Origin: a virus
Taxonomy: Duplodnaviria > Heunggongvirae > Uroviricota > Caudoviricetes
Length of the DNA: 4,595 nt
IMG/VR virus record: IMGVR_UViG_2695420564_000008
Direction: 5' to 3' (one strand)
Shown: positions 1 to 4,595 of the stretch, piece by piece
How the letters are laid out: each line of letters opens with the position of its first letter
Position numbering within the stretch: position 1 is the stretch's first letter
Position numbers and translations under genes: made by a program
The notes under the pieces: model-generated
The model's input: only the letters and a program-made list of their open reading frames with translations
Databases searched by the model: none
What the model was told of the DNA's origin: nothing

Positions 1-349
1 AAACAACAAGCAGCCAGCAGGCAATCACAGAAGCCACAGCAGCAATCATCACCAGCACAACACAACGAACCTCCGATGGATTTTGCTGTCTAACAGTTCA
101 ATGAATACCGCGCATTATAAGAGCCCGGCGTTTGACAGTATTATGGCGGAAACGTTGAAAGCTACTGACGAAGCGCAACGTACGGCGCTGTACACGAAAG
201 CAGAACAGCAACTGGATAAAGACTCGGCCATTGTTCCTGTTTATTACTATGTGAACGCGCGTCTGGTGAAACCGTGGGTTGGTGGTTATACCGGTAAAGA
301 TCCGTTGGATAACACCTACACCCGAAATATGTACATTGTGAAACACTAA
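1..349 (+). CDS. oppA: Periplasmic oligopeptide-binding protein OppA, 3' end (partial; gene begins upstream of the window)
   Basis: Frame-2 translation from about nt 86 to the TAA at 347-349 (LSNSSMNTAHYKSPAFDSIMAETLK...YYYVNARLVKPWVGGYTGKDPLDNTYTRNMYIVKH) matches my recollection of the E. coli OppA C-terminus. It is followed 85 nt later by oppB, the native operon order. The frame is open from the window edge, but nt 1-85 encode a low-complexity stretch I do not recognise as OppA (see findings). Confidence 0.85.
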   Translation, partial: NNKQPAGNHRSHSSNHHQHNTTNLRWILLSNSSMNTAHYKSPAFDSIMAETLKATDEAQRTALYTKAEQQLDKDSAIVPVYYYVNARLVKPWVGGYTGKDPLDNTYTRNMYIVKH

Positions 350-360
350 TGGCAATACGT

Positions 361-381
361 GGGGCAGGAGAGTCCTGCTCC
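361..381 (+). promoter_or_regulatory. Stable GC-rich hairpin in the oppA-oppB intergenic spacer (possible intra-operon attenuator or mRNA 3'-end stabiliser)
   Basis: GCAGGA (364-369), loop GAG, TCCTGC (373-378), extendable to about 9 bp with one G-U pair (361-381). A TTTTT run lies 10 nt downstream (392-396), so it is not a canonical intrinsic terminator. Its position between the binding-protein gene and the permease genes fits differential expression within ABC-transporter operons. Confidence 0.35.
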
Positions 382-434
382 ACGGTGTCTGATTTTTATC
401 GCATTACAGAAGGCACAGGCCAGAAGGTAGGGCA

Positions 435-1355
435 ATGTTAAAATTTATTCTACGTCGCTGTCTGGAAGCGATTCCGACGCTATTTATCCTCATTACTATT
501 TCGTTCTTTATGATGCGTCTCGCTCCGGGAAGTCCTTTTACCGGAGAACGTACATTACCGCCAGAAGTGATGGCCAATATTGAAGCGAAATATCACCTAA
601 ATGATCCGATCATGACGCAGTATTTCAGTTATCTGAAACAACTGGCGCATGGCGATTTTGGCCCTTCTTTTAAATATAAAGATTATTCGGTCAATGATCT
701 GGTTGCATCTAGTTTCCCGGTTTCTGCAAAACTCGGGGCCGCTGCATTTTTCCTTGCGGTGGTACTGGGCGTTAGCGCAGGTGTTATTGCCGCTTTAAAT
801 CAAAATACTAAATGGGATTACACGGTCATGGGACTGGCGATGACCGGGGTGGTTATTCCCAGTTTTGTAGTTGCGCCATTATTAGTGATGATATTTGCGA
901 TCATTTTGCACTGGTTGCCCGGCGGCGGCTGGAACGGCGGGGCGCTGAAATTCATGATCCTGCCGATGGTCGCTTTATCACTGGCTTATATCGCCAGTAT
1001 TGCGCGTATTACCCGTGGTTCAATGATCGAAGTTTTACACTCTAACTTCATTCGTACCGCACGCGCGAAAGGCTTACCTATGCGACGCATTATTTTCCGT
1101 CATGCATTAAAGCCTGCGTTGTTGCCCGTGCTCTCTTATATGGGGCCCGCATTCGTCGGCATTATTACCGGCTCTATGGTGATTGAAACCATTTATGGTC
1201 TACCGGGTATCGGGCAGTTGTTTGTTAATGGCGCATTGAACCGTGATTATTCGTTGGTCTTAAGCCTGACCATTCTGGTTGGGGCGTTGACCATTCTGTT
1301 CAATGCCATTGTCGATGTACTGTATGCGGTTATCGACCCGAAAATTCGTTACTGA
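435..1355 (+). CDS. oppB: Oligopeptide ABC transporter permease OppB
   Basis: 306-aa ORF with ATG at 435 preceded by AGGTAGGG; TGA stop at 1353-1355. The translation (MLKFILRRCLEAIPTLFILITISFFMMRLAPGSPF...DVLYAVIDPKIRY) is a full-length match to E. coli OppB as I remember it, hydrophobic multi-span throughout. Confidence 0.97.
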   Translation: MLKFILRRCLEAIPTLFILITISFFMMRLAPGSPFTGERTLPPEVMANIEAKYHLNDPIMTQYFSYLKQLAHGDFGPSFKYKDYSVNDLVASSFPVSAKLGAAAFFLAVVLGVSAGVIAALNQNTKWDYTVMGLAMTGVVIPSFVVAPLLVMIFAIILHWLPGGGWNGGALKFMILPMVALSLAYIASIARITRGSMIEVLHSNFIRTARAKGLPMRRIIFRHALKPALLPVLSYMGPAFVGIITGSMVIETIYGLPGIGQLFVNGALNRDYSLVLSLTILVGALTILFNAIVDVLYAVIDPKIRY

Positions 1356-1369
1356 TACTGGAGCTCGCG

Positions 1370-1585
1370 ATGATGTTAAGTAAGAAAAACAGCGAGACGC
1401 TGGAAAATTTCAGTGAAAAGCTGGAGGTCGAAGGCCGCAGTTTATGGCAGGACGCGCGTCGACGTTTTATGCATAACCGCGCAGCCGTCGCCAGTCTGAT
1501 TGTGCTGGTGCTTATCTCGCTGTTTGTGATTCTGGCGCCAATAATTTCTGCGATTAAAAAAAGTTACCTTGTATGCAATATGTGA
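1370..1585 (+). pseudogene. oppC: oppC, 5' fragment only (permease truncated after about 57 codons by a junction with foreign DNA)
   Basis: ATG at 1370 with CTGGAG Shine-Dalgarno. MMLSKKNSETLENFSEKLEVEGRSLWQDARRRFMHNRAAVASLIVLVLISLFVILAP matches the OppC N-terminus. After about nt 1542 the frame reads ISAIKKSYLVCNM and stops at 1583-1585, where native OppC continues for roughly 245 more residues. oppD and oppF are absent. Confidence 0.85.
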
Positions 1586-1625
1586 ATTAAAAGAGATAGT
1601 TGGCAATATCTGATAAGTATTCTCT

Positions 1626-1640
1626 GCCTGAGTATCAGGC
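1626..1640 (+). other. Short palindrome GCCTGA-GTA-TCAGGC followed by a T-rich run (terminator-like or operator-like)
   Basis: Perfect 6-bp inverted repeat with a 3-nt loop, followed by TCTATATTTTT (1641-1651). A wider imperfect inverted repeat CTGATA (1610-1615) / TATCAG (1633-1638) surrounds it. It sits immediately upstream of the TTG at 1650. Confidence 0.3.
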
Positions 1641-1649
1641 TCTATATTT

Positions 1650-3146: not shown

Positions 3147-3980
3147 ATGAACATCGAAAAAAGCAGATTAATTTCTGAGGCCGCCCCTCATCTGAACGCC
3201 TCTCTGGGCACAATTAACGGTAATGAATTTGCCGCAATTGTCCCGGTTATTCCTGGTCACATCGGTGGGCGTGAAACCAATATTGTTAGCGCAAAAGCGT
3301 TACACAAAGCGTTGGGCGTGGGAAAAGACTTCTCTACATGGATCACTGATCGCATCTCTGAATATGACTTCACCATTGGGCACGATTACTCAGTCCATAA
3401 AACAATTTCCCCAAATTTGGGGAAAAGCCCGAATGGCGCGGCTTACAGCAAGATTAAGCAGTCTGGCAGACCCGGCAAAGACTATCTGTTAAGTGTCGGA
3501 ATGGCGAAAGAACTGGCAATGATCGAACGCAATGATCAGGGTCGCGCTATCCGTCGTTATTTCATCCAGTGCGAGGAAGAATTACAGCGTAGCGTGCCTG
3601 AAATCGCCGCCCGCTATCGTCGCCAGCTAAAAGCCCGTATCAGTGCCGCAAACAACTTTAAGCCAATGTGCGATGCGCTGAATATGGCCCGTGCCGAGCA
3701 GGGGAAAACGACGCAGCAACACCACTACACAAACGAGAGCAATATGATTTCTCGTATCGTTCTTGGAGGGCTAACTGCTAAGCAGTGGGCGCGGATAAAT
3801 GGCTATTCTGGCGAACCTCGCGACCATATGAACGCAGAACAGCTTGAGCACCTCTCATATCTCGAAAGCACCAATATCACGTTAATTGATATGGGCATGG
3901 AATATGAGCAGCGCAAAGGAGAACTCACCCGCCTGTCGCAACGCTGGCTCGCCAAGCGTCTGGAGGCGGTCCATGTTTAA
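3147..3980 (+). CDS. Phage antirepressor-like protein with an N-terminal AntA-type domain
   Basis: 277-aa ORF with ATG at 3147 and GGAG 7 nt upstream. The N-terminal region (ALHKALGVGKDFSTWITDRISEYDFTIGHDY ... DYLLSVGMAKELAMIERNDQGRAIRRYFIQCEEEL) matches the signature I recall for AntA/AntB antirepressor N-terminal domains. I cannot assign the C-terminal half. Confidence 0.85.
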   Translation: MNIEKSRLISEAAPHLNASLGTINGNEFAAIVPVIPGHIGGRETNIVSAKALHKALGVGKDFSTWITDRISEYDFTIGHDYSVHKTISPNLGKSPNGAAYSKIKQSGRPGKDYLLSVGMAKELAMIERNDQGRAIRRYFIQCEEELQRSVPEIAARYRRQLKARISAANNFKPMCDALNMARAEQGKTTQQHHYTNESNMISRIVLGGLTAKQWARINGYSGEPRDHMNAEQLEHLSYLESTNITLIDMGMEYEQRKGELTRLSQRWLAKRLEAVHV

Positions 3981-4143
3981 GCCGACAGGAACACCACAAC
4001 CTCAAAAACGCTACAAAGATGCCCACGGAGCACTCGTTACTGTCGAAAGCGTGTCTCACAACCGAGTGACGTTTTATCGCGACGGGTATCAATCGCCATG
4101 CGTACAACCGCTGGCGCGCTTCATGAAGGAGTTCTCTCTTTAG
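3973..4143 (+). CDS. Small hypothetical protein (56 aa), translationally coupled to the antirepressor-like gene
   Basis: ATG at 3973-3975 overlaps the upstream TAA (ATGTTTAA arrangement), with GGAGG 5 nt upstream; TAG at 4141-4143. The ORF track extends this frame back to an ATG at 3886 (85 aa), which would overlap the upstream gene by 95 nt; the coupled start is more parsimonious. No family recognised. Confidence 0.5.
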   Translation: MFKPTGTPQPQKRYKDAHGALVTVESVSHNRVTFYRDGYQSPCVQPLARFMKEFSL

Positions 4144-4240
4144 TCACGCTCACATTACGCGACCAATACTAACAAAACATTAACACTATCTGGCAAAATT
4201 TTGTTCTAAACTTGATCTCAGCGAAATGGCTGCGCCTGAA

Positions 4241-4269
4241 TTGTGATAAAAATCACATTTTTATCACAA
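4241..4269. promoter_or_regulatory. Perfect 12-bp inverted repeat TTGTGATAAAAA-TCACA-TTTTTATCACAA with an embedded CRP-like site TGTGA-N6-TCACA (4242-4257)
   Basis: Directly readable: left arm 4241-4252, spacer TCACA 4253-4257, right arm 4258-4269. The nested TGTGATAAAAATCACA fits the CRP half-site consensus with a 6-bp spacer. It lies about 200 bp upstream of the gapA start. Confidence 0.5.
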
Positions 4270-4285
4270 CTGCCCTTTAAAATTC

Positions 4286-4298
4286 GGGGCGCCGCCCC
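4286..4298. other. GC-rich palindrome GGGGCG-C-CGCCCC (short hairpin or protein-binding site)
   Basis: Near-perfect 13-bp palindrome. On the minus strand it is followed by GAATTTTAAA, giving a weak terminator-like appearance; no T-run follows on the plus strand. Function unclear. Confidence 0.25.
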
Positions 4299-4393
4299 CA
4301 TGTGGTCTCAAGCCCAAAGGAAGAGTGAGGCGAGTCAGTCGCATAATGCTTAGGCACAGGATTGATTTGTCGCAATGATTGACACGATTCCGC

Positions 4394-4421
4394 TTGACGC
4401 TGCGTAAGGTTTTTGTAATTT
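4394..4421 (+). promoter_or_regulatory. Probable gapA proximal promoter: -35 TTGACG (4394-4399), 16-bp spacer, extended -10 TGTAATTT (4414-4421)
   Basis: Hexamers and spacing read directly; a second TTGACA lies at 4379-4384. Consistent with my recollection that gapA has a strong extended -10 promoter, but not verified against the published start site. Confidence 0.55.
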
Positions 4422-4464
4422 TACAGGCAACCTTTTATTCACTAACAAATAGCTGGTGGAATAT

Positions 4465-4595
4465 ATGACTATCAAAGTAGGTATCAACGGTTTTGGCCGT
4501 ATCGGTCGCATTGTTTTCCGTGCTGCTCAGAAACGTTCTGACATCGAGATCGTTGCAATCAACGACCTGTTAGACGCTGATTACATGGCATACAT
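4465..4595 (+). CDS. gapA: Glyceraldehyde-3-phosphate dehydrogenase A, 5' end (partial; continues beyond the window)
   Basis: ATG at 4465 preceded by GGTGGA. The translation [43 protein letters not shown] matches the E. coli GapA N-terminus including the NAD-binding GxGxxG motif. Confidence 0.97.

Follow-up and report, generated by a model that had tools for sequence, protein, structure and literature searches.

The joining of opp to gapA in an IMG/VR virus record is probably a chimeric artifact

Composition of the window

How did genes of the opp operon come to lie next to the upstream region of gapA? This arrangement is found in IMG/VR virus record IMGVR_UViG_2695420564_000008, of which a stretch of 4,595 nucleotides (nt) was analyzed as a whole (here called the window; coordinates are window positions unless stated otherwise). 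In line with an earlier, sequence-only reading of this DNA, which had pointed out the juxtaposition, the window contains the 3′ end of oppA, all of oppB, and codons 1 to 58 of oppC, as well as the upstream region and 5′ end of gapA. The open reading frame (ORF) listing and alignments revealed that approximately 2.6 kb of other DNA connects the opp genes with the region upstream of gapA, and that the recognizable ORFs, as judged by the ORF listing and Pfam, are all on the plus strand. Comparison with native sequences resolved these 4.6 kb into at least five unrelated pieces with four junctions. The boundaries and sources of the pieces, observed directly in these comparisons, are as follows:

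1 to 85, plus strand: lambdoid-phage ssb fragment (100% identity to phages HK75, mEp235, and mEpX2)
84 to 1542, plus strand: opp fragment of Escherichia albertii type (gapless alignment to ten genomes; Pfam BPD_transp_1 and OppC_N)
1543 to 1544, no strand: two bases, AA, from neither neighboring piece (native oppC and gpr-upstream sequences compared)
1545 to 1629, plus strand: 85 nt of intergenic DNA from approximately 270 to 355 nt upstream of gpr (yghZ) (100% identity to OLIF01000047.1)
1630 to 4134, plus strand: internal slice of a P4-like, satellite-type, integrase-borne island (2,505 nt, one mismatch to Escherichia coli 042)
4133 to 4464, plus strand: entire region between msrB and gapA, including the gapA promoter area (alignment to E. 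coli)
4465 to 4595, plus strand: 5′ end of gapA, 43 codons, up to the window edge (no difference from E. coli gapA; Pfam Gp_dh_N)

The whole window was compared with 5,426 complete E. coli genomes, the PLSDB plasmids, and the INPHARED phages. No single record in these collections covered 80% or more of the window, and only piecewise matches were obtained. Collectively, the comparisons suggest that the window is probably a chimeric or spliced artifact of some kind (computational, library, or clone) derived from one E. albertii-like genome, and that the join of opp to gapA is most likely not a real genomic feature and has no biological meaning.

Junction anatomy

The four junctions lie, in order, at 84/85 (junction A), 1542 to 1545 (junction B), 1629/1630 (junction C), and 4133/4134 (junction D). 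Comparison with native oppC placed the left edge of the non-opp DNA at 1542/1543, in agreement with the sequence-only reading, which had put it at approximately 1543. The right junction, which that reading had looked for between 4144 and 4400, was moved by alignment to 4133/4134. The same reading had assumed a single foreign island between opp and gapA; what lies there instead is a 2-nt filler, the 85 nt of gpr-upstream DNA, and the 2,505-nt island slice. Besides the junctions that flank and divide the 2.6 kb, there is one more, junction A, where the phage ssb fragment abuts the middle of oppA.

Neighboring pieces share next to nothing where they meet: two bases (TG) at junction A, none at junction B, where the 2-nt filler is found, none at junction C, and two bases (TC) at junction D. 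With the exception of the gapA-side end, all pieces end within coding sequences (CDSs) or intergenic regions, and none ends at an attachment (att) site or a gene border. All of the genes that cross a junction (ssb, oppA, oppC, the first gene of the island slice, and the DUF4222 gene) are broken. No flanking direct or inverted repeats, insertion sequence (IS) ends, or target duplications were present at any junction; no ORF or Pfam match in the window corresponded to a transposase, and no Rfam family was found in it. Since the overlaps are limited to 0 to 2 nt and repeats, IS ends, and target duplications are absent, the junctions do not result from repeat-mediated misassembly, homologous recombination, or transposition. 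Furthermore, a search of the window that allowed mismatches detected no FRT, loxP, KD primer, universal primer, or adapter sequences. No restriction site was newly created at the joins, and the sites of 6 bp or more near the junctions belong to native sequence only.

On the K-12 map, the chromosomal pieces originate from approximately 1.30 Mb (opp), 3.15 Mb (gpr), and 1.86 Mb (gapA). The mappable pieces, namely, opp, gpr, the yicC island, and gapA, are all in the plus orientation on the reference map.

Search for the arrangement elsewhere

The arrangement was also sought in larger collections. The 30-nt sequence across junction D was absent from 185,579 species-representative genomes (one per species), and the exact sequences of junctions A, C, and D were absent from IMG/VR. 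At the protein level, neither an index of 153 billion gene positions nor a collection of 15 billion proteins contained the 71-amino-acid fusion product of the truncated oppC or the 57- and 85-amino-acid DUF4222 variants with the new C terminus.

Truncated OppA products required a separate look. OppA C-terminal fragments of 88 and 82 amino acids are on record, all of them in native opp context, in frameshifted or edge-cut assemblies; because they occur only in this context, they provide no evidence for junction A. Several NCBI assemblies with the 88-amino-acid fragment have nearly every gene split (for example, adhE, oppA, oppB, oppD, and cls), a pattern typical of uncorrected, frameshift-rich long-read assemblies. 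The case illustrates that short "truncated" proteins in a gene index can be assembly noise.

Native context of opp and gapA

In K-12, oppC occupies 1,303,834 to 1,304,742 on the plus strand and gapA lies at 1,862,771, also on the plus strand, with 558 kb between them; msrB is divergent and lies upstream of gapA. The K-12 frame used in the sequence-only reading, which had placed the two loci several hundred kilobases apart, is only approximately right, because the backbone is E. albertii-like: the opp piece aligns at 89.8% identity to E. coli and, without gaps, at 99.0 to 99.6% to ten genomes that were retrieved with the exact OppB protein. Three of these ten genomes (CP030783, CP126908, and CP099892) are listed in Escherichia albertii genome papers (PMC10673567, PMC9861504).

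Native E. albertii does not have gapA after opp: all ten E. albertii genomes have a full-length oppA, and oppC continues into oppD and then oppF in each of them (an intact oppABCDF operon). Given this gene order together with the 558-kb spacing in K-12, the adjacency of opp and gapA is non-native.

The opp piece contains the following genes:

84 to 349 (ORF listed as 83 to 349), plus strand: last 88 codons of oppA (ORF listing, alignment)
435 to 1355, plus strand: oppB, complete (ORF listing)
1370 to 1542, plus strand: first 58 codons of oppC (ORF listing; the ORF from 1370 closes after 71 codons)

Identity to native opp begins at ...tgctgtctaac (window 84) and ceases after ...ggcgccaat (window 1542), beyond which native oppC goes on with gctttc. 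At the left end, oppA is short of approximately 455 codons.

To the left of oppA, window 1 to 85 is identical not only to the three lambdoid phages but also to prophages in 172 E. coli genomes (100%). In HK75, the ssb CDS spans 844 to 1350 and the match covers 1201 to 1285, after which the native sequence continues gacgacgatataccc. The match thus stops 65 nt ahead of the stop codon, directly before the codons of the DDDIPF tip, through which SSB proteins bind their partner proteins. In window 1 to 93, the SSB frame crosses junction A and ends ...NEPPMDF-AV-stop, with loss of the acidic DDDIPF tip; the product, if any, would be a tip-less SSB.

Filler and gpr-upstream piece

In the native sequence upstream of gpr, ttctgcg is preceded by ttt, and hence the AA at 1543 to 1544 is unmatched on this side. 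Window 1545 to 1629 corresponds to positions 6001 to 6085, minus strand, of the metagenome contig OLIF01000047.1, and no match to it was found in the 5,426 E. coli genomes. The contig encodes ExbB, ExbD, and Gpr and is 86 to 89% identical to E. coli. Since this divergence is the same as that of the opp piece, the contig is assigned to a non-coli, E. albertii-like Escherichia.

The 87 nt between the truncated oppC and the island slice were also considered as a diverged or shuffled 5′ end of the first island gene. This candidate was rejected, as the base composition differs and 85 of the nucleotides are gpr-upstream DNA.

As an aside on this locus, positions 3256 to 6278 of OLIF01000047.1 hold exbB-exbD and gpr within 3.0 kb; the E. 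coli counterpart measures 5.2 kb and has yghX, yghA, and yqhA in addition. The gene content of the exbB-exbD/gpr locus thus differs by lineage.

Island slice

The longest piece between opp and gapA corresponds to positions 4199578 to 4202082 of the E. coli 042 chromosome, and its sole mismatch, at window 2885, is synonymous. It carries the following genes:

1650 to 2387, plus strand: hypothetical gene without its first 29 codons; 245-amino-acid ORF (no Pfam domain)
2500 to 2703, plus strand: AlpA-type helix-turn-helix gene (Pfam Phage_AlpA)
2703 to 3134, plus strand: 143-amino-acid ORF (no Pfam domain)
3147 to 3980, plus strand: AntA/AntB antirepressor (Pfam AntA)
3970 onward (ORF 3970 to 4143), plus strand: DUF4222 gene without its last 7 codons (Pfam DUF4222)

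The slice is cut inside CDSs at both ends: it starts 88 nt into the first hypothetical CDS, whose product is 281 amino acids long in E. coli 042, and its right end falls 21 nt short of the end of the DUF4222 CDS. The island of E. coli 042 adjoins yicC (EC042_RS21005 onward) and has the order int, hypothetical, AlpA, hypothetical, AntA, DUF4222, Ash, and others, followed by a TOPRIM/DUF927 primase and P22-like ejection proteins. The AntA protein is found in more than 8,000 assembly blocks. In every place shown, the AntA module directly follows an integrase and adjoins yicC, proA, or another chromosomal site, and in 042 and other genomes the island module runs on into ash and the primase.

No integrase ORF was found in the window by the ORF listing or Pfam, and the slice also lacks both att ends, ash, the primase, and the ejection genes. 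Because the integrase, the att sites, and the remainder of the element are missing, there is no integrated element here. Insertion of the island, another option raised by the sequence-only reading, is excluded as a site-specific event on the same grounds, given that both ends lie inside CDSs and that the flanks are not contiguous natively.

Two observations concern the island itself. The 245- and 143-amino-acid proteins are domain-less in Pfam, yet they are conserved across many E. coli islands. In addition, two tandem 19-nt near-repeats, ATCATGATAATAAAATTTA and ATCGTGACAATAAAATTTA, are located at 2381 to 2420, between the stop of the 245-amino-acid ORF and the alpA-like gene; they may represent an operator or binding site in the regulatory region of the island.

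gapA-side piece

In the alignment to E. coli, the homology of the gapA-side piece sets in at the msrB start codon. The DUF4222 ORF and the gapA start are separated by 320 nt of non-coding DNA. Window 4133 to 4595 is 95.5% identical to E. coli overall; all differences fall in the distal 200 nt, which are approximately 90% identical, while the proximal part is identical.

The gapA upstream region also contains a perfect 13-nt inverted repeat at 4241 to 4269 (TTGTGATAAAAAT and ATTTTTATCACAA), the E. coli counterpart of which is less symmetric (CGTGATGAAAATCACA...). Within the repeat, at 4242 to 4257, lies TGTGA-N6-TCACA, which matches the consensus of a CRP site exactly.

Discussion

The chimeric option was among those that the sequence-only reading had left side by side, and it is the one that we favor, on account of the four blunt junctions within 4.6 kb, the 85-nt filler from a third chromosomal locus, and the absence of the tested junctions from every public genome searched. 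In such a chimera, at least five unrelated pieces (the prophage ssb, opp, the gpr upstream region, the satellite-type island slice, and the start of gapA together with its upstream region) would have been joined end to end, independently of homology. This could have come about by computational splicing of slices of one genome, or by co-ligation or template switching during cloning, library preparation, or amplification. We infer that the joining was artificial, and likewise the kind of artifact. One E. albertii-like genome, together with its mobile elements, could have supplied all of the pieces: those from the opp and gpr regions share 86 to 90% identity to E. coli, an E. albertii-level divergence, and two others belong to mobile elements that are widespread in Escherichia. 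The uniform orientation is best explained by top-strand slices of a single genome having been spliced together.

Several points weigh against this reading. Random co-ligation would give a uniform orientation in only approximately 1/8 to 1/16 of cases (6 to 12%). A single organism could account for the pieces, and relative to the 5,426 E. coli genomes the island slice has a private single-nucleotide polymorphism; the window was thus not pasted together from the reference genomes searched. The gapA-side piece would be E. albertii-like as judged by its divergence from E. coli, and a window-specific 23-mer from it matched no species-representative genome. In addition, absence from gene indexes is no proof of absence in nature.

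Of the conventional explanations, the first option named in the sequence-only reading, a single large event between opp and gapA, either a deletion or an inversion, with the island inserted at the breakpoint, is extremely improbable, even though the truncated oppC and gapA have the same relative orientation as on the reference map, as expected at a deletion junction. The 558-kb interval of K-12 that a deletion would remove contains pheS, pheT, rplT, infC, and thrS, all of them essential, and also holds the terminus and the dif region. An inversion would join the truncated oppC to the msrB side of gapA in the opposite orientation; in the window, however, it is gapA that follows, and the two genes point the same way. 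Neither event explains the ssb-oppA junction or the 85-nt gpr-upstream piece, and the supposed island, whose two ends both fall within genes, lacks an integrase and att sites. A misjoin by the assembler, in which true contigs were collapsed at repeated sequence, requires a shared k-mer or overlap, and the 0 to 2 nt shared by neighboring pieces, with no repeat at any junction, make it highly improbable, although multi-copy or mobile sequences, such as the island and the phage ssb, frequently cause misjoins. Deliberate engineering or synthesis, whether the window is designed DNA or comes from a laboratory strain that received an insertion upstream of gapA, is also very unlikely. Seamless junctions are achievable by synthesis or Gibson-type assembly, and the start of the gapA piece coincides with the border of the msrB-gapA intergenic region, as in a designer's "promoter plus gene" cut. 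However, none of the recombination, primer, adapter, or new restriction sites sought was present, there is no marker gene, the broken genes at the junctions serve no visible purpose, and the backbone is that of a wild-type, E. albertii-like strain rather than a laboratory E. coli.

A natural complex rearrangement or patchwork insertion in an E. albertii-like strain is unlikely. Captured chromosomal and mobile-element fragments would have been linked through homology-independent end joining or through serial template switching. The site might have been a lambdoid prophage, as the ssb fragment at the left edge could indicate, and the window would hold extra, broken copies of the loci. Illegitimate or alternative end joining produces junctions of this kind, with 0 to 2 nt of microhomology and a 2-nt filler, and an end-joining pathway has reportedly been described in E. 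coli by Chayot and colleagues, in a 2010 paper that is cited in PMC6525309. The compatibility of all pieces with one organism and the lack of a complete E. coli genome with an identical island slice are also in line with a natural origin. This explanation nevertheless needs four independent illegitimate joins in 4.6 kb, one of them involving an 85-nt piece, between loci that are megabases apart, and the junctions tested were missing from all of the public genomes, metagenome gene calls, and viral contigs searched. We know of no precedent in Enterobacteria for multi-fragment patchworks formed without IS, ISCR, or ISEcp1. That the patchwork is physically real, with sense-oriented captured fragments stitched together by homology-independent end joining or by serial template switching, conceivably of nucleic acid intermediates, and fixed in a genome, seems quite unlikely. 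Such a patchwork would be a bacterial counterpart of eukaryotic templated-insertion or chromoanasynthesis-like events, and if reads proved the junctions real, they would document a rare case in which several fragments were illegitimately joined in a genome of this family.

Should the window be a chimera, as we consider probable, the adjacency of opp and gapA is uninformative on genome evolution, and no deletion, inversion, or new island insertion site is to be deduced from it. The record or the window should then be flagged as unreliable, and findings that depend on context, such as the borders of the "island," the truncated genes, and promoter fusions, should be discounted.

The window can be compared with four kinds of known system. 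Large inversions and deletions mediated by IS elements, rrn operons, or prophages in Escherichia and Shigella likewise join distant loci in non-canonical synteny. These rearrangements have a repeat at the breakpoint and keep essential genes, whereas the window has no repeat and the deletion that it implies would be lethal. With the integrase-borne, satellite-type island of E. coli 042, the window shares the same early region (1630 to 4134) with one mismatch in 2,505 nt; in contrast to the 042 island, it holds an internal slice only, both ends of which lie inside CDSs. Known products of illegitimate recombination and alternative end joining in E. coli show the same 0 to 2 nt of microhomology and small fillers. 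However, they are single deletions or single fragments captured at a break, not four joins between loci megabases apart. Chimeric clones, reads, and contigs, which arise when sheared fragments are co-ligated, by template switching in amplification, or by computational concatenation, have the same homology-free joins of unrelated fragments of one genome, breakpoints within genes, short fillers, and junctions that are not reproducible elsewhere. The window differs from them in that its mappable pieces are all co-oriented, an outcome of low expected frequency under random ligation, and chimeras that arise during amplification are mostly inverted.

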